Part shown: positions 1 to 15,851 of the stretch, piece after piece
How the letters are laid out: each line of letters begins with the position of its first letter
Position numbering within the stretch: the stretch's first letter is position 1
DNA from: a virus
Taxonomy: Duplodnaviria; Heunggongvirae; Uroviricota; Caudoviricetes
Strand: one strand, 5' to 3'
Length of the DNA: 23,312 nt
Virus record (IMG/VR): IMGVR_UViG_2703718778_000014
The notes under the pieces: model-generated
What the model was told of the DNA's origin: nothing
The model's input: only the letters and a program-made list of their open reading frames with translations
The model's database searches: none
Position numbers and translations under genes: made by a program

Positions 1-204
1 CTCTCCCCGCGCCGCCTTACGCCGGTCTTCTTTAATTTTGAAATACAGGTTCGTCAGATATGTCAGCAGCCCAAACAGCAGACTCCCCAGCACGCCTATT
101 GCCGCCCACTGAGACGGGGAAACCCTGTCCAGCAACTGCAGGAACCAGTAGCCCGTTCCCACCGCTGACGTGGTGTATGACAAACCTGTTGTGATTTTTT
201 CCAT
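1..204 (-). CDS. Holin, phage 21 / Stx-phage S-type (pinholin-like); 5' part only, gene runs off the left edge
   Basis: Reverse-strand ATG at 204-202; the frame reads [68 protein letters not shown] with no stop before position 1; two hydrophobic segments and a charged tail match lambdoid S holins from memory. The ORF-track call 32..229(-) is a different frame. Confidence 0.55.
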
Positions 205-287
205 CTGGTACATACCCCGTCTCCCGCAATCCGGAAGCTCACAACAACAAGTGGGGCATCAGCTCACACCGACACCCCTGCGCATGG

Positions 288-557
288 TTACATCATCATT
301 TCGCCGTCAGGCTGAGGCTCTTCACTACCGTCAGGCTGAGACCCGACGCCATCTGAAACAGCACTGTCATCCGCAATGCCTTCCGGCTCCGGAACAGTCG
401 GTGCGCCCAGCAGTTCATCCAGAATGGCATCCACTTCTGCATCAAGACGCGCCTCAAGATTCTGGCGGAGTTTTTGTTTCAGTGCGCTCAGGACTTCTTC
501 AGAGCGCAGGACTTCCTTCACTGCCTCAGCAGTTACCAGCGATTTTATTTCTGACAT
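288..557 (-). CDS. Hypothetical acidic protein (89 aa) between the esterase and the holin
   Basis: Internal ATG of ORF 288..710(-) at 557 gives MSEIKSLVTAEAVKEVLRSEE...; the upstream extension looks non-coding. Weak RBS. Family not recognised. Confidence 0.4.
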   Translation of the reverse strand: MSEIKSLVTAEAVKEVLRSEEVLSALKQKLRQNLEARLDAEVDAILDELLGAPTVPEPEGIADDSAVSDGVGSQPDGSEEPQPDGEMMM

Positions 558-594: not shown

Positions 595-777
595 CTACGG
601 AATGAGCGGATCTTCGGGTTTGCTTCCGGCTGACTGACTGGCGCTGATTTTCTCAGCGGCCCTTTTATCAATCTGCCTGCGCCAGAAATCGCGCACGACT
701 CTGTACCCACCCGAAAGAAGATACAGCACGCATACCACCGTACAGAAGTACAGCATCAGTTGATGAACAAATGTCAT
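595..777 (-). CDS. Possible small membrane protein (60 aa)
   Basis: ORF with a hydrophobic N-terminal segment (LMLYFCTVVCVLYLL) and a basic tail; weak RBS; could be spurious. Confidence 0.25.
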   Translation of the reverse strand: MTFVHQLMLYFCTVVCVLYLLSGGYRVVRDFWRRQIDKRAAEKISASQSAGSKPEDPLIP

Positions 778-923: not shown

Positions 924-2912
924 TTATGATGAAGAGGTTGCCTGGTTAATGCTTACCATGATACTGCGGAACATGACAGGATAAGATTTTCCCTGATTTG
1001 CGCTGATACCTGTCACTGTGATGTTATCCACCGTAAAGGCAGAAGTGACCGGACCTTCTTTCAGTGCAAAACCTGTTTTCTCTTCTCCGTCAAGTACCGG
1101 AATAACCTGGTGATTGCCGCCTCCTTTATATTTAAAGACAAGCGTGTGCCAGTTGTTATTAACCGCACCGAATGACTCAATTTTTGTATTAGGCTGTGTT
1201 TTACCGTGATACATGACATCCAGGTTACTGGCTTTTGTCTGAGTGAAAAAGGAGGCCATCATATTGCTGCCGTTGCCTTCCTGAGTCCACCCGGAAACTG
1301 GCAGGTAAACACCAAAGAGGTATTTGTCATCTGCAACCTGGGTACCATCCGGCAACCTGAATTCAAGTTTTATTTCACCGCCATTTTCATACAGAGCACG
1401 GGCATCTTCAGCTGATACTCCTGCTGACAGCATCCACGGTCCCTGTTTGCCCTCATGCTGCTTAATCTTCAGCACCTGTCTGCTTTCATCATTAACAAAC
1501 TCGGCGACACCGTCCCGGGCATTCCAGTGCTGGGCTGCCCAGTTACCACCGAGGCTGTCTTTCTCAACAGCTGAATTATACTCAACAACCGTTCTTCTCT
1601 GAGGTGCATCCTGTGATAACGCAGCATCCTCCACAGGTGACGGGAAATTTCCGGATGTAACGTTTTCCCGTTCATCTCCTGCAACTACCGTTTCTGACCG
1701 CCCGGTGATAAACGCCGGGTATTTGCCTGCGTGGGTCAGAATTGCGGTTGCAAGACGATCTGAAATAATTCCACGCCGCGCCCATGAACCGAAATGGCTT
1801 GCCCTGTCACCTGACGTCCAGCTGACAGAACTGTCTCGCCACTTCGAACCGGAGTAGCCAATACCTTCAATATCAGGATCTTCTGCCGGATTATTGGTCT
1901 GCACATTTACCCCGCTTCCATCAACCATGAAAGGGACAAAGTGAATATTCTGCGCTGCCTTATTTTTATATCCACCGTATACAGTTTCATAAGACGCAGC
2001 ATATTTTTCTTTCCAGTAATGCGTCGTATCGCCACAAACCCACGGAACGCTCAGTGCCGAGCCCCCCACGCACTGCCCTGACATATCAGCGATGTCAGCA
2101 CGGAATTTCTGTACCATGCCAGTAAAAAGAGCATTATGACTCTGGCTTCCTGAAGCCAGATCACTCTCCCCCTGCATCCAGATTACCGCCAGCAGGATAT
2201 TTCCGGGATTTTTAGCCAGCGCGACTTTCGTGCGACTTAACAGATCCTGGTACAGCGGCTTATCAGCTCCCCACAATGCAGAATCAGGGCTTGCCCCGGA
2301 AGAGGCGTTAAATGTTCCCTCATTACCTGTAGTCACTCCCGAGCCTCCACGACAGCATGGAACCAGAAGAATGCCCGCATTCGCCGGTATAAACGGTAAC
2401 AGTTTTTTGGCAATATGCAGTCCCTGACCCACACAACCATACTGACCTTTATTGAGGTCTGCCCGGGGGTGATTTTTTTCACTCATATCCATCACATCAT
2501 GAAGACAATGATCTGCCGGAATAACATCGTTATAGGTGCAGGGAACGCCTCGCGGCGTAACGGTACGTCGACGGGCAAGCTGCTTAATTCTCGGATCAGG
2601 GCGATCATAAGAATCAGGTAACGGTACTCCCTCTCCAAAAGACATACCATTTGACTGACCCGCCAGCGCGACAACATAATAATATTCAGGCTCACCGGTC
2701 TTGCTGATAGCCGTCTCCCCGTCACCCGATGGTTTAACCAGCACCGGCGTGGTGACATCACCTTCCGCCGCAATAGCCTGCATCAGGGTATAAGGCGTGA
2801 TGGCGACAGGGCTGCCAAATGGCTGCCACCCCTCCTTCAGTTTTTGTGTCAGTCGTTCAGCAAGGTCTGACGGCGATGCCGCCCTGACCACATCGTAGTG
2901 TTTAAATGCCAT
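924..2912 (-). CDS. nanS: Phage sialate O-acetylesterase, NanS-p-like (SGNH/SASA hydrolase family), 662 aa
   Basis: ATG at 2912 with RBS GGGAGG; GQSN catalytic block (VVALAGQSNGMSFGEG) typical of sialic-acid-specific 9-O-acetylesterases; size and position between tRNAs and holin match the nanS-p genes of Stx-type prophages. Confidence 0.75.
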   Translation of the reverse strand: MAFKHYDVVRAASPSDLAERLTQKLKEGWQPFGSPVAITPYTLMQAIAAEGDVTTPVLVKPSGDGETAISKTGEPEYYYVVALAGQSNGMSFGEGVPLPDSYDRPDPRIKQLARRRTVTPRGVPCTYNDVIPADHCLHDVMDMSEKNHPRADLNKGQYGCVGQGLHIAKKLLPFIPANAGILLVPCCRGGSGVTTGNEGTFNASSGASPDSALWGADKPLYQDLLSRTKVALAKNPGNILLAVIWMQGESDLASGSQSHNALFTGMVQKFRADIADMSGQCVGGSALSVPWVCGDTTHYWKEKYAASYETVYGGYKNKAAQNIHFVPFMVDGSGVNVQTNNPAEDPDIEGIGYSGSKWRDSSVSWTSGDRASHFGSWARRGIISDRLATAILTHAGKYPAFITGRSETVVAGDERENVTSGNFPSPVEDAALSQDAPQRRTVVEYNSAVEKDSLGGNWAAQHWNARDGVAEFVNDESRQVLKIKQHEGKQGPWMLSAGVSAEDARALYENGGEIKLEFRLPDGTQVADDKYLFGVYLPVSGWTQEGNGSNMMASFFTQTKASNLDVMYHGKTQPNTKIESFGAVNNNWHTLVFKYKGGGNHQVIPVLDGEEKTGFALKEGPVTSAFTVDNITVTGISANQGKSYPVMFRSIMVSINQATSSS

Positions 2913-3104
2913 GAATCCTCCCGGCCGGAATAATGTTCTGAGTCAGAGAAGGCTCGGGCTGACCTCCGGAAACACAAAAGTCACACAAAACAGCCCGCAA
3001 AAAAGAAATACGCCCTTACATACAGTTGCGCAATGTGATTACTGTAAGGTATTATTAGGGCGCTGAATAAATTACTTCACGTTTTGTTATTTATTCCTTG
3101 CCAA

Positions 3105-3130
3105 CCGCTCTTCCCTGGAGCGGTTTTTTT
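3105..3130 (+). terminator. Hairpin plus T7 tract (plus-strand half of a bidirectional terminator at the edge of repeat unit A)
   Basis: ccgctc (3105-3110) / gagcgg (3118-3123) stem followed by ttttttt (3124-3130); paired with a second hairpin at 3142-3161 whose T-tract is on the minus strand. Confidence 0.4.
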
Positions 3131-3136
3131 GCATGT

Positions 3137-3304
3137 AAAAAGGCTCCTGCAATGAGGAGCCTGGATGTATGCCTAATCTCTGTATACTACATGGTGCCGG
3201 GTGCCTCCCGGTGAGTTCAGTATCAGCACCTGAACCCGCACAGAAAGGATAGAGTAGAAACACCTGCGCTGATATGCCCCTCCGCTCAGGGGGATTCACC
3301 ATGC
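3137..3304 (-). ncRNA. Candidate structured small RNA, repeat unit A (boundaries approximate)
   Basis: Conserved blocks shared with units B and C; variable 8-bp stem gagttcag (3213-3220) / ctgaaccc (3230-3237) fully paired only on the minus strand (G-U); minus-sense terminator hairpin 3142-3161 plus T-tract; no conserved ORF. Confidence 0.35.
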
Positions 3305-3398
3305 AGAACTTTTTTAACAACTCCCCGTCAGACAGGCAAGCATCAACCATCTGAACTGTGAGGGATTTAACATTTAACAACACAGCCTTTTCCCGCAC

Positions 3399-3563
3399 AA
3401 AAAAAGCCCCTCAGGAGAGGGGCCGATCGCTGTGTATACACCATAAGCAGCATAGTGCCGGGTGCCTCCCGGTAGATTCAGCCTGACTACTGAATCTGCG
3501 TATTGTGACCATCGCTATGGAGACCATGTCAGACGCCCCTCCGCACAGGGGGATTCACTATGC
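3399..3563 (-). ncRNA. Candidate structured small RNA, repeat unit B (boundaries approximate)
   Basis: Same conserved blocks; variable stem agattcag (3474-3481) / ctgaatct (3490-3497) with compensatory changes relative to A and C; strong minus-sense terminator gcccctcaggagaggggc (3406-3423) followed by TTTTTTT. Confidence 0.35.
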
Positions 3564-3779
3564 TGGCTCGTTTTTACAAGACTTCCATCAATCAGACAAT
3601 AGTCCATCAACCGAATTGTGAGTCATTTAACATTTCCATGAGGTAACTGATATCCAGCTAACAATCATCTGCAATGGACGAAGCCAGTTCCAGAACTTGC
3701 CCACACTACAGCAACAACCACTGCATTCCAAAAATGGAATTTTGGGAGATTACTTCTGCAAACAGCTACCGATAAATAT

Positions 3780-3916
3780 ATCCCTGATTGCCTGCGCAGT
3801 CTGTTCAAAACGCCCGGTATCCAGCTCAACGCCTATAGCACGACGCCCCAGCGCCATCGCTGCTTTAACTGCCGAACCCTACCCCATGAAGAAATCTGCA
3901 ACCAGGCCACCCGGCA
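3780..3916 (-). pseudogene. Relic copy of the 3' end of the DNA methyltransferase gene, with an in-frame stop
   Basis: Nucleotide-level match to 5316-5445 (C-terminal codons of the methyltransferase at 5290..6348); the Ser codon of the FFMGSGST motif (tcg) is TAG here (forward cta at 3879-3881); no start codon or N-terminal region present. Confidence 0.5.
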
Positions 3917-4033
3917 GAAGGGAGACTACAGCCCGCAATTCGAAAAAGGCCGCGCAGTTGCGCAGAGTGATTACTATGGGGTATTATTCGCCAGCTGAAA
4001 TATTACTTCACGTTTTATTGTTTATTCCTTGCC

Positions 4034-4061
4034 GCCCGCGTCTCCCAGCGCGGGCTTTTTT
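4034..4061 (+). terminator. Hairpin plus T6 tract (plus-strand half of a bidirectional terminator at the edge of repeat unit C)
   Basis: gcccgcg (4034-4040) / cgcgggc (4049-4055) followed by tttttt; second hairpin gcccctccagagaggggc at 4074-4091 serves the minus strand. Confidence 0.4.
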
Positions 4062-4065
4062 GTCC

Positions 4066-4245
4066 ATAAGAAAGCCCCTCCAGAGAGGGGCTGAAGCCGC
4101 ATTTCTGTATCACCATGAGCATGGTGCCGGGTGCCTCCCGGTGAGTTCAGCCCGGTGACACTAAACCCGCGTATTCTCGCTTACGATCATCAAAGAGATC
4201 ATACCGTTCACCAGTCGCCCCTCCGCACAGGGGGATTCACCATGC
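4066..4245 (-). ncRNA. Candidate structured small RNA, repeat unit C (boundaries approximate)
   Basis: Same conserved blocks; variable stem gagttcag (4143-4150) / ctaaaccc (4161-4168) has two mismatches on the plus strand that are G-U pairs on the minus strand; minus-sense terminator hairpin at 4074-4091. Confidence 0.35.
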
Positions 4246-4380
4246 GAAATTTTTTTAACAAATGCCCAGTCTGACAGGCAACTGTCAACTTACTGAATTG
4301 TGAGGAATTTAACACTTCACAGCACAATATCTTTCCAGCACCCCAAAATCATCTGGACAGGAGAAAATCTTCTCCCCCAG

Positions 4381-4809
4381 TCAGAGTTTAAAATCCAGCA
4401 CGCCATTTCTAAATGCTTTATATACTCCTGAAGACGGTGGTGATGGTATATCAGCATTCTTTACTGCATTCATCGCTTCACGACATAAATCGGGATCACC
4501 GCTTTCTCTTTTAACCTGTAGCAGAAGACCATTCGGGGCCATATACATTCTCAGTGAACACTCTTTTCCTGAATACTTACCCGCATCCTTTAACTGTTCT
4601 TCTATGGCTTCCCTGACCTGAATGGCATACTGCCGGATTTCTTCACTGGCATCAGGGGTACGTTCCGATAAGCTCAAATTTTGCGACTTTATTAATTTAT
4701 CTGAGTGATGCAGCGAAGCATCATAATTATTTGTCGATACATCTTTTGTGCAGCCAGTTGTCAGACTGGCTAATATCAAAACAAGAACCGGTACAGCACG
4801 GCAATACAT
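4381..4809 (-). CDS. Putative lipoprotein (142 aa), cargo gene in the stx-equivalent slot
   Basis: ATG at 4809 with RBS GGAGATGG; N-terminal signal peptide MYCRAVPVLVLILASLTTGC with a lipobox-like LTTGC; AT-rich upstream region suggests its own promoter. Family not recognised. Confidence 0.55.
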   Translation of the reverse strand: MYCRAVPVLVLILASLTTGCTKDVSTNNYDASLHHSDKLIKSQNLSLSERTPDASEEIRQYAIQVREAIEEQLKDAGKYSGKECSLRMYMAPNGLLLQVKRESGDPDLCREAMNAVKNADIPSPPSSGVYKAFRNGVLDFKL

Positions 4810-5087
4810 TTATCCATCTCCATATTAACAAGAACAATTATCTATAAAATATAGTAAATATGCGGGATCCGGGAGGACTTGTAACTATCATCTCCGGATC
4901 AGCATGTAGTTTTTATTTTTCCGGATGATATATGCCGCAATAATACCCCTGCATACAGATGCCTGCAAATATCTACGAAGCATCCGGCGAGAATAAACAA
5001 GGAAATCTGAGACTATCTTATATGATAGCCTGTTGCTCAAAAGACAATGATTCACTCATCAGAGCTAACAACGCATGATGCAGATAA

Positions 5088-5164
5088 TGGACCGCCATCG
5101 AGGACTCGAACCCCGCGCAGCCAGCTCCGAAGGCTGGCGCTCTATCCCGATGAGCTAATGGCGG
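5088..5164 (-). tRNA. tRNA-Arg, anticodon UCG (77 nt including CCA)
   Basis: Manual cloverleaf on the minus strand: acceptor CCGCCAT/ATGGCGG, D-arm GCTC...GAGC, anticodon stem CCAGC/GCTGG with loop CUUCGGA, T-arm CGGGG-TTCGAGT-CCTCG, 3' CCA. C1-G72 pair is unusual. Confidence 0.7.
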
Positions 5165-5173
5165 TATGTGATA

Positions 5174-5249
5174 TGGTGGCCCTTGCTGGATTTGAACCAG
5201 CGACCTGGCGATTATGAGTCGCTCGCTCTCACCACTGAGCTAAAGGGCC
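5174..5249 (-). tRNA. tRNA-Ile2 type with anticodon CAU (ileX/ileZ-like; tRNA-Met not formally excluded)
   Basis: Minus strand reads GGCCCTTTAGCTCAGTGGTGAGAGCGAGCGACTCATAATCGCCAGGTCGCTGGTTCAAATCCAGCAAGGGCCACCA; canonical arms, anticodon loop CUCAUAA; close to E. coli ileX as recalled. Confidence 0.8.
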
Positions 5250-5289
5250 GGGCGCAGGATAATAACGGTACGTAACTAATCCTGCAATA

Positions 5290-6348
5290 TCATCCGTTCT
5301 GGCTGGCTAAATCCTGAACTTCCCTGACCGTCTGCTCAAAACGTTCAGTCTCCAGCTCAACGCCTGTAGCACGACGCCCCAACACCATCGCTGCTTTGAC
5401 TGTCGAACCCGACCCCATGAAGAAATCTGCAACCAGGTCACCCGGACGACTGCTCGCACTGATTATCTGCTGCAGCATTTCTGCCGGTTTTTCGCACGGA
5501 TGTTTCCCGGGATAGTACTGCACCGGTTTATGCGTCCACACATCGGTGTACGGCACCCGCACCGTCACACCGAAATACCGCCGCAGATGCTTATATTCAC
5601 TCTGCAGTTCCGTATACTGCCGGTTCAGTTCACTGTATGTGCTGACCAGTTGGTGATGTGGCTTTTCCAGTTCTCCGCGCTGATGCTTCTCTTCTGCCAC
5701 CCGGGCAAACAGCGCCTGTAATTTCAGATAATCGCTTTCGTCCGGTAACTGCCACTGGCTGGCACTGAACCAGTGCGACACCATATTTTTCTTTCCTGTG
5801 GCATCCACTATCTGTTTTGCCGTTATCCCCAGGGCAGCACGCGCATCACGAAAGTAAGAAATCAGCGGGGCCATCACATGCTGTTTCAGTGCCCTGCCCT
5901 TCGCCTCATACCCGGCATCTTTCGGGCGATACGGCCCCTGATAATGTTCCGCGAACAGAATGCGCTCTGTGGCGGGGAAATACGCCCTCAGGCTTTCCTT
6001 GTTGCACCCGTTCCAGCGTCCGGACGGCTTTGCCCAGATAATATGGTTCAGCACACTGAAGTGTTCACGCATCATGATTTCGATATCAGATGCCAGGCGA
6101 TGGCCACAGAACAGGTAAAGACTTCCGGCAGGTTTCAGCACCCGCCAGAACTGCGCAAGACACTGGTCCAGCCACTTCAGGTAATCATCGTCGCCCTTCC
6201 ACTGGTTATCCCAGCCCTCAGGCTTCACTTTAAAGTACGGCGGGTCCGTGACTATCAGATCAACAGAATTTTCGGGTAACGACCGGATAAATTCCAGGCA
6301 GTCAGCGTTGATTAACTCACAACTGGATATTTTTACAGTGTTAAGCAT
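5290..6348 (-). CDS. DNA methyltransferase, N6-adenine/N4-cytosine family (DPPY motif), 352 aa
   Basis: ATG at 6348; motif IV DPPY near the N-terminus (LIVTDPPYF) and motif I FxGxG near the C-terminus (DFFMGSGST), i.e. beta-class order; position after Q and before tRNAs as in Stx-type phages. Confidence 0.8.
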   Translation of the reverse strand: MLNTVKISSCELINADCLEFIRSLPENSVDLIVTDPPYFKVKPEGWDNQWKGDDDYLKWLDQCLAQFWRVLKPAGSLYLFCGHRLASDIEIMMREHFSVLNHIIWAKPSGRWNGCNKESLRAYFPATERILFAEHYQGPYRPKDAGYEAKGRALKQHVMAPLISYFRDARAALGITAKQIVDATGKKNMVSHWFSASQWQLPDESDYLKLQALFARVAEEKHQRGELEKPHHQLVSTYSELNRQYTELQSEYKHLRRYFGVTVRVPYTDVWTHKPVQYYPGKHPCEKPAEMLQQIISASSRPGDLVADFFMGSGSTVKAAMVLGRRATGVELETERFEQTVREVQDLASQNG

Positions 6349-6486
6349 GGATCATTAAGCCTGTCTCTGATAGGCTCATTCTGCTTTTGCGCAAAGCAGT
6401 GGGCCTGAGGTTTGCTTGTGATCCTGACGCATGAGCAGATGGCTGGTGAGTGCCCCTAACACCCACCAGCCGCCCATTTACCACAA

Positions 6487-6512
6487 ATAAAAAAGCCTTC
6501 AGGACTGAAGGC
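6487..6512 (-). terminator. Intrinsic terminator (minus strand), third of a stack
   Basis: Stem gccttcag (6495-6502) / tgaaggc (6506-6512); minus-sense transcript is followed by TTTTTTATTT. Confidence 0.4.
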
Positions 6513-6546
6513 GTCTGTAACAACCGAACTGATAGTCTGCCAGCCC

Positions 6547-6569
6547 AAAAAAAACCCGCCAGTGGCGGG
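6547..6569 (-). terminator. Intrinsic terminator (minus strand), second of a stack
   Basis: Stem cccgcc (6555-6560) / ggcggg (6564-6569) preceded on the plus strand by A8 (6547-6554), i.e. T8 after the hairpin on the minus strand. Confidence 0.45.
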
Positions 6570-6773
6570 GATCTTTTGATAAAAACGACAAAGGCACCAT
6601 TAAGGTGCCTTTTACACAGGGCAGCAGGCTTGTCATCACCTTATTGCTACTCCTGGCTTCCAGTTCGGAAGTCTCACAAGTCCCATCAGGGTACAGCGAC
6701 AGTATCAGTCAACACTCTATGATTCTGCTGAACAGGCAGTTTCGCACTGTACATTATAACCTGTTAAGCCAAC

Positions 6774-6795
6774 AAAAAACCCGCTCGGCGGCGGG
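6774..6795 (-). terminator. tR'-like intrinsic terminator downstream of the candidate late promoter
   Basis: Stem cccgc (6780-6784) / gcggg (6791-6795), loop tcggcg, followed on the minus strand by TTTTTTG (6774-6779). Confidence 0.4.
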
Positions 6796-6849
6796 GTTTG
6801 CTTACTTTGCCATCGCGAACAAAATCTGCAAAATATCAGATTTACACGG

Positions 6850-6878
6850 AATATATGCTCTTCAGTTCTATTTTGCAA
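6850..6878 (-). promoter_or_regulatory. Candidate late promoter pR' just after the Q gene
   Basis: On the minus strand: -35 TTGCAA (6878-6873), 17-nt spacer, -10 TATATT (6855-6850); about 60-75 nt upstream of the tR'-like terminator, as in the lambda pR'-tR' arrangement. Confidence 0.3.
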
Positions 6879-7551
6879 GATATGGTTCTAAATTAATCGA
6901 CTTTTGCCGTGAACGTACCCGCATTACTGAAATAAGAGCATCCCTGTCCAGCATCTCTGCACTACCCCGCATAGCCAACCAGTGAGGCCTGTGTGTTTTT
7001 GTCCATGTAGATTTAGCAACTCCTATGAACACCGCTAACTCCTGATGTTCATAGGTCTCACGCCCTGCCAGCTCACTCTTCACATCCTGTGCCGCCAGCC
7101 AAATCAGTTTCTTCAGACGATCCAGCGTTTTCCCTGCAATTTTTCTGGTACCAGCCTGAGCTTTAAACTCACCCCATACCCATTGTGTTATAGTGACCTG
7201 ATCTTCCCAGCAAACATTTCCACTGTAGCACCACAGTAACCACGCCTTCTGATGTTCTTCCAGTTCCAGAACGGCACGCCGCCACGATGATGTTGCAAAC
7301 TCAACCGGACTGACCAGCGCAATTGATGAGCCTTTCGCCAGTGATTGTTTACCCGGGATCGGTTGATTATCCCGCGTGATCATTTTTCCGGTTACCTCAT
7401 CGCGATAACGAATTTTTTTGCGTCTGTAACACCCTGTATCGAACAGGGCATTCTCCTGCCAGGCTTCCAGCTGGCCTTTTGTCGCCCCACTGAGATCCGC
7501 AGTGGCAATCATGAGTTGCTCACGAACAAACTGTAAATACTGGTTATTCAT
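6868..7551 (-). CDS. Late antiterminator Q-like protein (QuuQ/YdfT-like family by position and size)
   Basis: ATG at 7551 overlaps the rusA stop (ATGA); sits between rusA and the pR'/terminator region as Q does in lambdoid phages. Family assignment is from gene order and recalled Qin-prophage context, not a motif match. Confidence 0.5.
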   Translation of the reverse strand: MNNQYLQFVREQLMIATADLSGATKGQLEAWQENALFDTGCYRRKKIRYRDEVTGKMITRDNQPIPGKQSLAKGSSIALVSPVEFATSSWRRAVLELEEHQKAWLLWCYSGNVCWEDQVTITQWVWGEFKAQAGTRKIAGKTLDRLKKLIWLAAQDVKSELAGRETYEHQELAVFIGVAKSTWTKTHRPHWLAMRGSAEMLDRDALISVMRVRSRQKSINLEPYLAK

Positions 7552-7907
7552 GCGCACTCCAGTTCTGTGATTTTTATCCCCAGCCGCCCGCCAGGAACAG
7601 GCAGGCCACGCACAATATTGATTTCATCAAACTGCTCATCGTCCATTAACAACCCCGCATGCGTAAGCGCATCCAGCGGCGCTTTCAGAATATTGTCCAG
7701 GTCACGGCGGCGCTTATCCGGTGGCTCTGCAATAATCCTGATTACCAGCCTTCCGGACAGGCTTAATTTCAGCCGCTGCTGGTTAACAATAAGCGCCACA
7801 GCACGGCGATAGCGCTTTCCCTCCTCCGAGATAAAATATGTGCTGCCACGACGACGCCAGTAGGTGTTCACCGTTGGCGGGTAAGGTAAAACCAAATCTA
7901 TGAGCAT
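7548..7907 (-). CDS. rusA: Holliday junction resolvase RusA (119 aa)
   Basis: ATG at 7907 with RBS GAGGTG; conserved RusA blocks PPTVNTYW, DKRRRDLDN and GGRLGIKITE. Confidence 0.8.
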   Translation of the reverse strand: MLIDLVLPYPPTVNTYWRRRGSTYFISEEGKRYRRAVALIVNQQRLKLSLSGRLVIRIIAEPPDKRRRDLDNILKAPLDALTHAGLLMDDEQFDEINIVRGLPVPGGRLGIKITELECA

Positions 7908-7919
7908 CAGTCACCTCTT

Positions 7920-8969
7920 TTACCCGAGCACGCCAGTCGCAAAGGCGTGATCAAGAAAATGAAAAATTAACTCAACCTGGGACCCGTACTTTTTCTCAAA
8001 CTCCAGCGGGTCAGCATGAAGTTCGTTGTGGTGCTCCCGGCACAACGGTAGTGTGAAAATATCGTGGGATTTTGTCCCCATACCGCCCTGCCCATGGCCA
8101 ATCAAGTGATGCGGATCATCAGCTGGCTTTCCACAGCATGCACACGGCTGCGTCTTAACCCAGCGCGTGAACTTTTCATTAACCCAGCGACGACGTTTAG
8201 GCCGTTTCATGAAAGATTCCGGGGACTCCGGATCAACGGCGATGCTTACTACCGTCTTTTCCTGTGGCGTGGTTTGTGGCTGGTGGGCGTGAAGCGGTGG
8301 CGCTATGTTTTTTGTCCGCTGCTTCAGGATGCTGGTGGCGGTCTGCTCTCCCGGTATGATGTCGCTCTCACTGTATACGGAGCGAATTTTTTCCACCGGT
8401 AATCCCAGCGAACGACGCAATACAGATTCCGGAAGCGCATCAGCCACCTGATTGCAGACCGCCCACCAGGATAATTCAGCCAGCGATAATTCACGCTCCT
8501 GTGCGCCATTCATTACGTGACGGATGACGTCAATCATCCAGGCGGCCAGATTCTGTTGAGCAAGTAGCTCCAGTGAATCAGATGTCTGCTCCCGCAGGTG
8601 GTTGTCGCAGTGCCAGCACAACACCATCGCGCCGGTACTGTAACGGTGAATGACGGTTTCGCTGTGATGATAATCGCCGTGTGGCCACTGGCAGGATTTC
8701 ACGTGACGTAATAACCAGTCAGACAGTACACCAGCGCCACCCGCAGCACGGATCACCCGCTCATCGCTGAAAAATGGCAGTAATGATTTATCTTCCGCCA
8801 GCGGCTGGCGAACGGCAGGTACAAACCCGGACGGCAGAGCACGCATGCTTTTCGGTTCCGGCTCCACCAGCACCCTGCCGCAATGAAAAACAGGCAGTGA
8901 TTCGCGTCCGGGCTTAAGGACCACCAGGCCAAGTTCCGGCACCAGAACAGGTCGAAGTAATACCCGCAC
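7920..8969 (-). CDS. DUF968 (YdfU-like) protein with C-terminal HNH-like zinc-finger motif
   Basis: GTG start at 8969 with strong RBS GGAGGT; C-terminus CACCGKPADDPHHLIGHGQGG...LCREHHNELH resembles HNH nuclease signatures; 349 aa as in Qin-prophage YdfU. Confidence 0.55.
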   Translation of the reverse strand: MRVLLRPVLVPELGLVVLKPGRESLPVFHCGRVLVEPEPKSMRALPSGFVPAVRQPLAEDKSLLPFFSDERVIRAAGGAGVLSDWLLRHVKSCQWPHGDYHHSETVIHRYSTGAMVLCWHCDNHLREQTSDSLELLAQQNLAAWMIDVIRHVMNGAQERELSLAELSWWAVCNQVADALPESVLRRSLGLPVEKIRSVYSESDIIPGEQTATSILKQRTKNIAPPLHAHQPQTTPQEKTVVSIAVDPESPESFMKRPKRRRWVNEKFTRWVKTQPCACCGKPADDPHHLIGHGQGGMGTKSHDIFTLPLCREHHNELHADPLEFEKKYGSQVELIFHFLDHAFATGVLG

Positions 8970-9415: not shown

Positions 9416-10642
9416 ATGTCAGGAACCATAACAAAAATCAGCACAGGGGAAAATGTTCTGTCAGCAGCAATCCATCGCATTGAATGGTTGTTCGAAACGT
9501 TTAATGAGGTCTGCTTGTCTTTTTCTGGTGGCAAAGACTCTACTGTGCTTTTCCATCTTGTGGCAGAAGTCGCCAGTAGAAAAAAACGTCGTTTTTCGGT
9601 TTTATTCATTGACTGGGAAGCCCAATATCAGTGCACGATTAATCATATCCAAAAGATGAGGGAAATGTACCGGCATGTGACAGACAATTTTTACTGGGTA
9701 GCGCTTCCTCTGACTACGGTAAATGGCGTCTCTCAGTTTCAGCCAGAATGGATATGTTGGGAGCCAGGTGTAGAATGGGTTCGTCAGCCACCAGATGACG
9801 CTATTACAGATATGTCGTATTTCCCATTTTATCGGTATGCCATGACGTTTGAAGAATTTGTTCCGGCATTTTCTTCCTGGTTTGCCGGTAACCGATGTGG
9901 AGTGGGAATACTAACTGGTGTTCGTGCTGATGAATCGCTCAATCGCTTTATGGGACTGGTGTCTCAGCGCAAACTGAGATATGCAGATGATAAACCCTGG
10001 AGCACCGCTTCACCCGATGGTTTTTACTACACCATGTATCCATTGTATGACTGGAAAACAAATGATATATGGACGTATAACTCAAGAACCCGCGCCATCT
10101 ACAATCCCCTGTACGACCTAATGTACCGTGCCGGAGTGTCGTTACGCAACATGCGTGTTTGTGAGCCCTTTGGCCCGGAACAGCGTAAGGGGCTGTGGCT
10201 TTACCATGTTCTGGAGCCGGAAACCTGGGCCAGGATGTGTGAGCGAGTGTCAGGGGCTGCCAGTGGCGCTCTTTATGCCAATGAAAGCGGTGCCTATTTT
10301 GCTCTGCGTAAACGAATCACAAAACCGGCTCATCATACCTGGCGCAGCTACGCAATGTTCATGCTGGATGTTATGCCAGAAAGAACAGCAGAACATTACC
10401 GTAACAAAATTGCAGTCTACCTGCGCTGGTATCAGACGCGGGGCTTCCCGGATGATATCCCGGATGAACAGGAGAATGACCTGGGGAGCCGGGATATCCC
10501 GTCCTGGCGACGTATCTGTAAGACGCTCATAAAGAATGACTTCTGGTGCCGGACCCTCTCCTTCAGTCCGAACAAACCCCGGCACTATGAGCGTTATCTG
10601 CAACGAATGAAGGAAAGGAGGAAAGAATGGGGGATTCTGTGA
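9416..10642 (+). CDS. ibrA: PAPS-reductase-like PP-loop ATP pyrophosphatase (IbrA-like, DndC-like fold), 408 aa
   Basis: PP-loop motif SFSGGKDS near the N-terminus; 3' end overlaps the next gene by 16 nt. Confidence 0.65.
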   Translation: MSGTITKISTGENVLSAAIHRIEWLFETFNEVCLSFSGGKDSTVLFHLVAEVASRKKRRFSVLFIDWEAQYQCTINHIQKMREMYRHVTDNFYWVALPLTTVNGVSQFQPEWICWEPGVEWVRQPPDDAITDMSYFPFYRYAMTFEEFVPAFSSWFAGNRCGVGILTGVRADESLNRFMGLVSQRKLRYADDKPWSTASPDGFYYTMYPLYDWKTNDIWTYNSRTRAIYNPLYDLMYRAGVSLRNMRVCEPFGPEQRKGLWLYHVLEPETWARMCERVSGAASGALYANESGAYFALRKRITKPAHHTWRSYAMFMLDVMPERTAEHYRNKIAVYLRWYQTRGFPDDIPDEQENDLGSRDIPSWRRICKTLIKNDFWCRTLSFSPNKPRHYERYLQRMKERRKEWGIL

Positions 10643-11271
10643 CGCCTGAGATGGATGTACTAAGCAACATGATTCGTCAGTACTTCAGTCGGGAACAGCC
10701 CGAAGAAGAGTCCATACGAGCCCTTAACCATCTGCGCAGGGTACTGCATGAAGTCAGTCCTTTTGCACAGGAGCCTGTAGACTGTGTGCTGTGGGTGAAA
10801 GCGGATGAGGTGGTAGCCAACGATTATAACCCCAATGTCATGGCACCAAGTGAGAAGAAACTGCTGAAGCAGTCACTGGAAAAAGATGGTTTCACACAAC
10901 CGGTGGTGGTGTCAGAGGAGAAGAATCATTATCTGGTGGTGGATGGTTTTCATCGTCAGTTATTGGGCAGAGAATCAGTTACAGGAAAACGTCTGAGGGG
11001 CTGGCTGCCTGTAGCCTGTATTAATCCAGAGAGAAAAGGGCAAGCCGCACGCATTGCCGCAACCATTCGACATAACCGGGCTAGGGGGAAACACCAGATA
11101 GACTCAGTGTCTGATATTGTAAGAGATCTTTCACGCTTGGGATGGGCAGATGAACGCATTGGCACTGAGTTGGGTATGGATCAGGATGAAGTACTGAGAC
11201 TTAAACAAATTAGCGGGCTAACTGAGTTATTTCAGGAAGTGGATTTCAGCCCGGCATGGACAGTTAAATAG
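10627..11271 (+). CDS. ibrB: ParB N-terminal-domain (ParB/sulfiredoxin-like nuclease) protein (IbrB-like), 214 aa
   Basis: Strong RBS AAGGAGG; ParB-box-like HYLVVDGFHR and basic TIRHNRARG block; translationally coupled to the upstream gene. Confidence 0.65.
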   Translation: MGDSVTPEMDVLSNMIRQYFSREQPEEESIRALNHLRRVLHEVSPFAQEPVDCVLWVKADEVVANDYNPNVMAPSEKKLLKQSLEKDGFTQPVVVSEEKNHYLVVDGFHRQLLGRESVTGKRLRGWLPVACINPERKGQAARIAATIRHNRARGKHQIDSVSDIVRDLSRLGWADERIGTELGMDQDEVLRLKQISGLTELFQEVDFSPAWTVK

Positions 11272-14056: not shown

Positions 14057-14370
14057 TCCTGAACCCTCCTGTCGAAATAAACGTAGTTATTCACTGCGCC
14101 CAACTTCATCCCAAACTTTTCGGCAATTTCCCGTTGGGGTACGCCACGCTGATGCAGTTGCCGCGCCAGCTCAATATCACGCTGTGAGAATTTGGCTGAC
14201 TGGTGATAATCACCCCGTAACATCATGCTGATCCCCAGTTCCCGCGCTTTCGTCCTGACGGCTGACTCACTACGGCCAATCAGATAACCGATGCTTTCGA
14301 CTCTCATCGTTCCCGCACACTGCCGGAGTATCAGGATTTCAGCCCAACGCCACTTCTTCCAGCCACTCAC
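14053..14370 (-). CDS. Putative DNA-binding protein with two helix-turn-helix-like segments
   Basis: GTG at 14370 overlapping the stop of the 44-aa ORF (GTGA); segments SESAVRTKARELGI and QREIAEKFGMKLGAVNNYV look like HTH motifs; the ORF-track upstream extension to 14457 looks non-coding. Confidence 0.4.
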   Translation of the reverse strand: MSGWKKWRWAEILILRQCAGTMRVESIGYLIGRSESAVRTKARELGISMMLRGDYHQSAKFSQRDIELARQLHQRGVPQREIAEKFGMKLGAVNNYVYFDRRVQE

Positions 14371-14501
14371 CGCTGCTGCTCTCTGGTGGTGGTAATATCC
14401 CGGAGAATATCCCTGTGTTTGTTCAGTTCCCGCAGCGCAGCACAGACTCGCTCCCACTTCTGGACATCACTTTTCGCCCGACGCAGTTCGCGGTTTGCCA
14501 T
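14367..14501 (-). CDS. Small basic protein (44 aa), translationally coupled to the downstream HTH gene
   Basis: ATG at 14501, 6 nt after the preceding gene's stop; MANRELRRAKSDVQKWERVCAALRELNKHRDILRDITTTREQQR; not in the ORF track (short). Confidence 0.3.
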   Translation of the reverse strand: MANRELRRAKSDVQKWERVCAALRELNKHRDILRDITTTREQQR

Positions 14502-14507
14502 ATGCAG

Positions 14508-15083
14508 CTATGGTAAAACCAGGTCATCCGCTTGCGTTTCGGTGAACAGTGGCAACGACTGCACAATATCCACCACAGTTTCTGTTTTAATATCTTCCTG
14601 TGTAGTCGTTTGCTGGACTGGTAACGCAACACCTGCTGGCTGAGGAAGGGCTTTACCATCCGTTTCCGCTACAGATGCGGCTTTCGGCTCTACTGGTAAA
14701 TTATCGCCCGGCATGCAGTAACGAAATTTACCGCCCTGATTCACGCGAATCAGACGCCCTTTGCTGATTGCCATTGCCAGCGATGAATTCGCACGGCGGG
14801 AGGTAATTCCGAACATCAATGCCAGCTCATCCGCCGTTTGTGGGCCATGTTGTTCAATCGCCTCTGTCAGCATTTGCGCCGTCACTTTTGGTGGTTGTAT
14901 CACAGATTCACTTTCCCCTGCCTGAGTCAGCCACCACATCGCCCCCCTGTTATCCGCTTCACCACGGCGTTTCAGTTTCCACAGTTCGTTGACAGCCTCT
15001 TCACGACTGATTCCAAGGCGCGCAGCCACCACATGTGAAGAGGCTTTTTTCAGTGCTTTCAGTGCGTCAGATACGGTTTCCAT
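14508..15083 (-). CDS. Phage protein with N-terminal winged-helix-like domain (191 aa)
   Basis: ATG at 15083 with RBS GGAGGA; N-terminal [34 protein letters not shown]; family not firmly recognised. Confidence 0.5.
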
Positions 15084-15104
15084 TAAAATTTCCTCCGGAC
15101 AAAA

Positions 15105-15851
15105 TTACTTCACAACCCTCATATTGCTGACATTTGGACGCCAGCTATCCCAGTTAAACGTCACCCATCGACCACCGTTCATGGTCATGCGGTCCATAAT
15201 CCTCTCACCAAGAAGCGTACTCATTGCGGCATGATTCAGGTTTGTTAACATCCCGACACTGCACAGTGATGCTGTCCGGCGATCAATTATCTGGTGCAAT
15301 ACCACCTGCTCGTTTTTCGTCTCCCGCTGGACGCCTATTTCATCCAGGACCAGCAAATCAACCCCGCAAAGCTCCTGTAAAAATTTTTCCCCGGATTTGC
15401 CGTTGTCGTAGCTGTCATGCAACACGCTCATGACGTCAGACACGGTGACGATAATCACGCTGCGCCCCTTCACCATCAGCCGGTTGCCCATCGCCGCTGC
15501 AAGGTGATTTTTCCCGGTGCCGGTTTTACCGCTGAACACAAAATTCGTGCACCCGGTCATCAGTTCGTCAGCTATGGATTTGGCCTAGCTCAGCGCGTAT
15601 TTTTGCCCGTCGTTCTGCACCTGATAATTTGCAAACGAGCATTTGCTGTGCAGAGGCTGGATGCCCGAACGATTCAGGATTTTTTCCACCCGCAACTGGC
15701 GATTCTGGCAGTTAATCTCCTCGCTGCGTTTTCGTCCTTCAGCAAGTTGCCATTCCCGCCACTCCTCCACCGTCCGGTACGGTGGAACCGCCCCCAGTGG
15801 TGCAAGTCTGCGAATACATTCAAGAACCCCAACTGCCGCAATGTTTTTCAT
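15105..15851 (-). pseudogene. DnaC-like helicase loader (YdaV-like) interrupted by a single in-frame amber codon
   Basis: N-terminal fragment (15588..15851, ends ...FANYQVQNDGQKYALS) and C-terminal fragment (15105..15560, FSGKTGTGKNHLAAA Walker A) are in one frame separated by TAG at 15585-15587; read-through gives ...KYALS*AKSIADELMTG..., collinear with E. coli DnaC. Confidence 0.7.

Follow-up and report, generated by a model that had tools for sequence, protein, structure and literature searches.

A predicted lipoprotein with a TolA C-terminal domain occupies the toxin slot of a lambdoid prophage late region and may act as a periplasmic decoy

We analyzed a 23,312-nucleotide stretch of DNA (IMG/VR record IMGVR_UViG_2703718778_000014; hereafter the window, meaning the whole stretch), an Escherichia coli lambdoid prophage with its integration site beside ompW and its late operon on the minus strand. 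Between positions 2,913 and 5,289 lies a low-GC cassette encoding a 142-amino-acid (aa) lipoprotein whose C-terminal part is homologous to domain III of the envelope protein TolA. Read along the minus strand, the late region runs from the antiterminator gene Q through a terminator cluster, a DPPY methyltransferase gene, tRNA-Ile(CAU) and tRNA-Arg(UCG) to the lipoprotein gene, which is followed by three RNA units, a NanS-p-like esterase gene, DUF1378, DUF826 and a holin gene. The individual features are as follows.

6868-7557, minus strand: late antiterminator Q, 229 aa (PF06323 Phage_antiter_Q, E 4.6e-88 over the full profile; antitermination protein Q in RefSeq)
6495-6878, minus strand: candidate late promoter pR' and terminator-like hairpin cluster (tR' region), consensus matches only
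5290-6348, minus strand: DPPY (N6/N4) DNA methyltransferase, 352 aa (PF01555, E 1.1e-42; TDPPY motif in the translation)
5174-5249, minus strand: tRNA with anticodon CAU, ileZ-type tRNA-Ile2 (ARAGORN; Rfam tRNA, 72.5 bits)
5088-5164, minus strand: tRNA-Arg(UCG), argN-type (ARAGORN and Rfam)
4304-5061, minus strand: cargo cassette, an AT-rich leader and the lipoprotein gene (gap between two blocks homologous to phage Stx2_95)
4381-4809, minus strand: 142-aa lipoprotein open reading frame (ORF) (PF06519 TolA C-terminal, E 3.4e-22)
4062-4274, minus strand: STnc100 small RNA (sRNA) copy 1 (Rfam RF02076, 172.3 bits)
3750-3914, minus strand: 165-nt methyltransferase 3'-end pseudogene fragment (RefSeq pseudogene; internal stop, no N-terminus)
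3397-3592, minus strand: STnc100 sRNA copy 2 (Rfam RF02076, 120.8 bits)
3131-3332, minus strand: STnc100 sRNA copy 3, directly upstream of the esterase gene (Rfam RF02076, 164.1 bits)
924-2912, minus strand: NanS-p-like carbohydrate esterase, 662 aa (DUF1737, SASA and DUF6645 domains; phrog_143)
595-777, minus strand: DUF1378 (Pfam)
288-557, minus strand: DUF826 (Pfam)
1-213, minus strand: class II holin, stop codon beyond the window edge (RefSeq annotation of the identical locus)

The preliminary description of this DNA had likened the gene order to the late region of Shiga toxin (Stx)-converting phages, and the likeness held on comparison: the window was colinear with the Stx2a phage Stx2_95 (LC567838), with flanks 93-95% identical. 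The order in Stx2_95 is Q, a 65-aa ORF, methylase, tRNA(CAT), tRNA-Arg, tRNA-Arg, stx2A, stx2B, esterase, DUF1378, DUF826 and holin, and in a Stx1c phage stx1AB likewise lie between Q and the esterase gene; in the phages compared, stx was thus flanked by the tRNAs (or Q) on one side and the esterase gene on the other, as the description had stated. Phages 933W and Sp5 presumably follow the same plan as Stx2_95. All of the features that the description had named were present, but it had overlooked the third tRNA of Stx phages (argO, Arg UCU), which is absent from the window, as well as the pseudogene fragment and the two small ORFs, DUF1378 and DUF826, that separate the esterase gene from the holin gene. 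The tRNA at 5174-5249 is called tRNA-Met(cat) by ARAGORN and tRNA-Ile by RefSeq, and the equivalent gene is named ileZ in the record of phage Lahn2. As a whole the late-region layout is ordinary: lambdoid prophages that share the plan of Stx phages without being Stx phages are common in E. coli.

The boundaries of the cargo were sharp. By blastn, window positions 5062-6546, methyltransferase included, corresponded to Stx2_95 (L004) 6836-8321 at 95% identity, and positions 3913-4303 to its stx2B-esterase spacer (L004 5001-5395) at 93%. Neither stxA nor stxB was found in the window, and the blastn gap relative to Stx2_95 spanned exactly argO and stx2AB. With these exact breakpoints, the 758 bp at 4304-5061 stand in for the 1,440 bp with argO and stx2AB in Stx2_95. 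The cassette has 38-43% GC, compared with 50-57% in its flanks, and is inserted between conserved genes with exact boundaries, two features by which phage morons are recognized; the AT-rich region noted earlier upstream of the lipoprotein gene was likewise borne out (38-41% GC). In a prophage of strain EDL933 the same backbone has 523 bp from tRNA-Arg to the esterase gene, an empty slot. No tolA-like gene was found in the EDL933 prophage region compared, though one paper links the ciprofloxacin-induced gene EDL933_2012 with "TolA".

The three RNA units, which had been proposed to share the toxin slot with the lipoprotein, turned out to belong elsewhere. All three match the Rfam model STnc100 over model positions 1-206, with scores of 120.8-172.3 bits against a gathering threshold of 47, and copy 1 is orthologous to the STnc100 found after stx2B in Stx2 phages (93% spacer identity, with an Rfam match there too). 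We rejected the RNA units as slot cargo on this ground: the repeats are already known phage sRNAs and form part of the conserved flank of the slot, not a replacement of the toxin, so that only the lipoprotein cassette occupies the slot itself. A location of STnc100 downstream of stx2 has been published (PMC12370729), and in many prophages the related sRNA PasD immediately precedes the esterase gene, with frequent STnc100 matches around these loci (bioRxiv 10.64898/2026.05.13.724894). The pseudogene at 3750-3914 shares 86% identity with the 3' end of the methylase in the Stx phage and 89% with the intact copy at window 5330-5445. Since this methyltransferase fragment separates copy 1 from the other two, the interval has the appearance of a recombinational join of two late-region modules; copies 2 and 3, which are included in alignment A3, appear to have come with a second, truncated module, and the fragment would be a scar of the recombination between two late-region variants. 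The prophages of STEC1589 (L002 6694-9644) and STEC1587 (L003), from E. coli that make Shiga toxin (STEC), have an extra 726-nt helix-turn-helix gene in the interval and up to five STnc100 copies, and the sRNA array therefore seems to grow and shrink.

The lipoprotein itself consists of a signal peptide (residues 1-20) with a lipobox (LTTG/C20), a linker of about 34 residues (21-54) and a TolA domain III (55-142). The lipobox sequence, MYCRAVPVLVLILASLTTG/C, fits a PROSITE PS51257-type pattern, and G19 and C20 are nearly invariant across the family alignment (A1). The earlier reading would have fallen had the ORF lacked homologues and a cleavable signal peptide; it had both homologues and the lipobox pattern. 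The alignment of residues 55-141 to E. coli TolA 334-420 is gapless and spans the domain from end to end (E 7e-25), with 44 of the 87 residues identical (51%), and the two proteins end at the same position. In TolA numbering, the disulfide cysteines C363 and C388 are kept, as are E381, A391 and the residues D418, F419 and K420 (motif LDFK) of strand beta3, which serves g3p, colicin N and TolB as their binding site (PMC4339652; PMC7391070).

The match is restricted to this domain. It covers profile positions 270-361/362 and 298-386/387, domains I and II are absent, and for this reason we rejected the possibility that the protein is a true TolA paralogue; moreover, its gene lies in a prophage late operon and not in the tolQRA-tolB-pal cluster. 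With a lipobox anchor in place of domain I, a role in energy transduction is excluded. Full-length TolA has about 390-420 aa. The lipoprotein scores 99.8 against NF007065, failing its cut-off of 213, and 72.6 against TIGR02794, passing its cut-off of 59.45; this pass on domain III alone is the probable source of the name given to it in RefSeq, "tolA: cell envelope integrity protein TolA", and genomes with the gene thus appear to carry two tolA genes. In PHROGs it matches phrog_5772, a family of unknown function. An AlphaFold model built from a 23-sequence alignment had its best structural matches among TolAIII structures, and its residues 1-52 had pLDDT values below 50, consistent with a flexible tether. 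The model supports only a TolAIII fold with a disordered N-terminal half, and we relied on the sequence alignment instead. Under the Lol rule, a Thr and not an Asp at position +2 after the lipidated Cys predicts sorting to the outer membrane, and since the residue here is Thr, the lipoprotein should be placed at the inner face of that membrane.

Homologues of the lipoprotein were found in 897 of 5,426 complete E. coli genomes, 894 of which had at least 80% of the gene. About 123 genomes carry the allele of the window and 761 an allele about 79.5% identical in nucleotides. In all contexts examined the gene lay in the interval from Q to holin, in late orientation and after the tRNAs; alleles 71% and 64% identical occupied the same interval in the same orientation, after tRNA-Ile2 and tRNA-Arg, and the position was conserved behind three types of Q, with or without the methylase and esterase genes, and also in prophage remnants devoid of lysis genes. 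Next to the 71% allele (L012-L016, 5826-6539), a gene for an AraC-type (HTH_18) regulator and a TfpB-domain gene precede the lipoprotein gene within the Q-to-slot interval. Since a scan of the GTDB species representatives returned one locus, in Shigella flexneri, the close family appears confined to Escherichia and Shigella. The design reaches further: a profile-free search of 1.8 billion representatives gave 292 matches, many of them proteins of 115-160 aa built in the same way, the strict lipobox pattern was passed by 73 of 104 short family representatives, and the combination of lipobox and TolA domain recurred in dozens of 50%-identity clusters. Full-length relatives, about 32% identical, were present on 1,301 plasmids out of 72,556, of which 660 came from Klebsiella and 546 from Escherichia, conjugative IncF plasmids among them. 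In the two plasmid contexts inspected (IncR, L020 6001-6435; IncF, L021 6001-6435) the relative lay directly downstream of a thioredoxin-fold gene, and all listed plasmid relatives are annotated "tolA". Our literature search found no functional study of the family or of a phage TolA-like protein, TolA decoy or TonB-like lipoprotein.

The gene is under purifying selection: between alleles, dN/dS was 0.26-0.39 at dS 0.5-0.7, and the length stayed at 142 aa across alleles 62-71% identical. Furthermore, the ORF was intact in prophage remnants stripped of lysis and structural genes (L012, L013) and in the prophage of strain S19-651 (NZ_CP075852), to which the window is identical except for a 270-bp deletion at window position 6546. 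According to RefSeq, the S19-651 prophage has IS600 in its portal gene, internal stops in replication genes and a frameshift in its tape-measure gene, the portal and tape-measure genes lying outside the window; from the split portal, the frameshift and the pseudogenes it follows that the prophage is probably defective. Its counterparts of the DUF1627 gene and of an ATP-binding replication gene (window about 14367-15851) are among the pseudogenes with internal stops. The 270 bp missing from the window correspond to S19-651 L001 23635-23904 and are present in related prophages and in Stx2 phages; with them the window has lost the greater part of a conserved ORF of 65 aa that lies between Q and the methylase gene. 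On the plus strand, at about 9416-11271, the nin region has received a divergent pair of PAPS-reductase-like and IbrB-like genes.

A defective prophage with a visibly scrambled interval, in which a methylase fragment and duplicated sRNA units lie next to the cargo, is where one might find a piece of tolA that was captured by illegitimate recombination and is carried along with a mosaic late region without function, possibly unexpressed, and no promoter was identified for the gene. We nevertheless consider a functionless passenger improbable, since the domain has gained a signal peptide, a lipobox and a ribosome-binding site, its length has stayed constant among diverged alleles with a dN/dS of about 0.3, and the same architecture recurs in many clusters. 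Cargo that acts on the animal host or on colonization and is released on prophage induction, as Shiga toxin is, we regard as improbable as well. The gene does sit exactly in the stx slot, and the allele of the window comes mainly from STEC isolates from humans and cattle. However, the commonest allele is spread over avian, environmental and commensal E. coli, relatives reside on Klebsiella plasmids, and toxin, enzyme and adhesin domains are all missing from the protein, which is a copy of a periplasmic bacterial interaction domain on a predicted lipid anchor. Nothing points to the cargo being a toxin.

We also considered how the gene might be transcribed. It is collinear with the late operon, downstream of Q, of a pR'-like site (TTGCAA-17-TATATT at 6878-6850, a consensus match) and of the terminator cluster, in which minus-strand hairpins followed by T-runs lie at 6795-6780, 6612-6590, 6569-6555 and 6512-6495. 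Terminator-like hairpins were enriched in the region 2800-7000 (19, compared with 4.0 +/- 1.7 in shuffles), and the nearest strong one downstream of the lipoprotein gene is that of STnc100 copy 1. Given the late orientation and this chain of terminators before the lysis genes, which antiterminated transcription would have to traverse together with the lipoprotein gene, transcription by Q-dependent read-through is plausible.

Such late expression would suit a helper of lysis or release, in which the lipoprotein, made only late, titrates TolB, disables the Tol-Pal system and loosens the outer membrane before holin, endolysin and spanin act, with faster lysis, vesicle shedding or periplasmic release as the outcome. 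We rank this explanation second and think it rather unlikely, its rank resting on the place of the gene in the late operon, in late orientation and shortly before the lysis cassette, together with the lack of a convincing promoter belonging to it. Among sequenced free phages, mEp460_ev081 alone carries the gene, and there too it is located between Q and holin. Moreover, tol mutants over-shed vesicles (PMC7391070), and periplasmic TolAIII has been used experimentally to leak periplasmic proteins, as stated in the passage of PMC6195910 that cites Wan & Baneyx 1998. A lysis helper would, however, be useless in the remnants that keep the ORF intact and have no lysis or structural genes, the plasmid-borne relatives cannot be lysis genes, and lysis proceeds without it in almost all lambdoid and Stx phages that have been sequenced.

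In the near-identical S19-651 prophage a second lipoprotein, of 108 aa (lipobox LVMG/C), has a TonB C-terminal domain (PF03544, E 5e-15). Its gene (L001 14863-15189, minus strand) lies about 2 kb beyond window position 1 and occurs in phage 21 and among Stx1a phages as well. A single prophage thus encodes C-terminal domains of both TolA and TonB with predicted lipid anchors.

The reading that we place first, and to which we give about an even chance, is that the lipoprotein is a periplasmic TolA decoy made in the variable cargo slot of the lambdoid late operon. TolA domain III is a hub bound by the N-terminus of TolB, by colicins A and N and by the g3p protein of filamentous phages (PMC7391070; PMC4339652). 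With a predicted lipid anchor, an intact binding strand and Thr at +2, a competitor for TolA ligands is the simplest reading of the protein, and its protective use is ranked first because the gene is retained in degraded prophages, occurs on plasmids in related form, is under purifying selection and has a TonB-domain lipoprotein alongside. The 758-bp low-GC cassette has taken the place of argO and stxAB in the slot, and on this model its gene would be transcribed each time that polymerase modified by Q runs on into the lysis genes. The lipid-anchored domain III would then compete at the outer membrane with the TolA of the cell for the N-terminus of TolB and the segments with which group A colicins and filamentous-phage g3p bind TolA, and a decoy placed at the Tol import hub would be expected to confer tolerance to Tol-dependent colicins and phages. 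Its cost would be some loosening of the outer membrane, given that export of TolAIII to the periplasm makes the outer membrane leaky according to the statement in PMC6195910 that cites Wan & Baneyx 1998 and Levengood-Freyermuth 1993.

Several points weigh against a protective decoy. A protective decoy would have to be made in the lysogen, and its expression there is putative, as no convincing promoter belonging to the gene was found: a consensus scan gave a single 9/12 match (4969-4940), which is not kept in the 71%-identical allele, and promoter-like matches in the region were not enriched (7, compared with 5.0 +/- 2.4 in shuffles). In a leader alignment of three alleles, about 100 nt were conserved between the window and the 71% alleles, with no conserved -35/-10 pair. 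Half of the domain residues differ from those of E. coli TolA, and the colicin A box of TolA, LLDIKP, is altered to LLQVKR, so that the domain may by now prefer other ligands. A tol-like phenotype, were it constitutive, would come at a cost in bile. The predicted structure is poor (mean pLDDT 60), and the lipoprotein had no match among the PADLOC defence-system profiles at E <= 0.01. Finally, only 1 of 50,697 phage records (that of mEp460_ev081) has the gene, whose known carriers are for the most part resident prophages, a good number of which may be defective.

The interest of the locus lies in its cargo, a conserved gene under purifying selection in about one-sixth of complete E. coli genomes, with distant forms on about 1,300 plasmids. 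It represents an uncharacterized but widespread design, the domain of a host import hub on a lipid anchor, and is akin in type to the envelope lipoproteins known as phage cargo. Should the lipoprotein be a Tol decoy, it would affect the susceptibility of STEC and commensal E. coli to colicins and filamentous phages, might cause outer-membrane leakiness and vesicle release on prophage induction, and would change how the annotation "tolA" is read in prophages and plasmids. A broader proposal, which we put forward tentatively and as doubtful, is that enterobacterial lambdoid prophages and IncF/IncR-type plasmids widely carry lipid-anchored TolA and TonB C-terminal domains as periplasmic decoys that protect their carrier. 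If this were true, such decoys would guard against group A and group B colicins and against Tol- and TonB-dependent phages, including the pilus-specific filamentous phages to which conjugative plasmids expose their hosts, and would form an unrecognized class of entry-blocking immunity, hidden under the automatic names "TolA" and "TonB family protein".

Compared with known systems, the locus is closest in layout to the late region of Stx2 phages, with which it shares Q, terminators, DPPY methylase, ileZ, argN, the slot, STnc100, nanS-p (in the position of yjhS/NanS in Stx phages), DUF1378, DUF826 and holin. It differs from them in having the 758-bp lipoprotein cassette in place of stxAB and argO, a Q of a different type (PF06323), an extra truncated module with the methylase fragment and two more STnc100 copies, and the 270-bp deletion between Q and the methylase gene. 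The sRNA units take the positions published for STnc100 and PasD, after the stx slot and directly before the esterase gene, whereas here three copies share one interval.

The lipoprotein shares with domain III of E. coli TolA (PDB 1S62, 3QDP, 1TOL) the whole globular domain, including both cysteines and the LDFK motif, and lacks domain I, the membrane anchor that couples TolA to TolQR, and the helical domain II. Like recombinant periplasmic TolAIII it is an isolated exported domain, and a leaky outer membrane is what the account quoted above describes for the recombinant case; the natural protein, in contrast, has a predicted lipid anchor and is diverged from TolA. The TonB-domain lipoprotein that this prophage shares with phage 21 and some Stx1a phages has the same design of a lipobox and an energy-transducer C-terminal domain in a lambdoid late region; it differs in its domain family and in its location downstream of Rz, and is likewise uncharacterized. 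Llp of T5, Cor of phi80 and HK022, and TraT of F are entry-blocking lipoproteins of mobile elements, small proteins that alter the susceptibility of the envelope, and the likeness to them is one of possible action and not of family. They have no sequence relationship to the lipoprotein described here, and they act on outer-membrane receptors, whereas the lipoprotein would mimic a periplasmic import hub.

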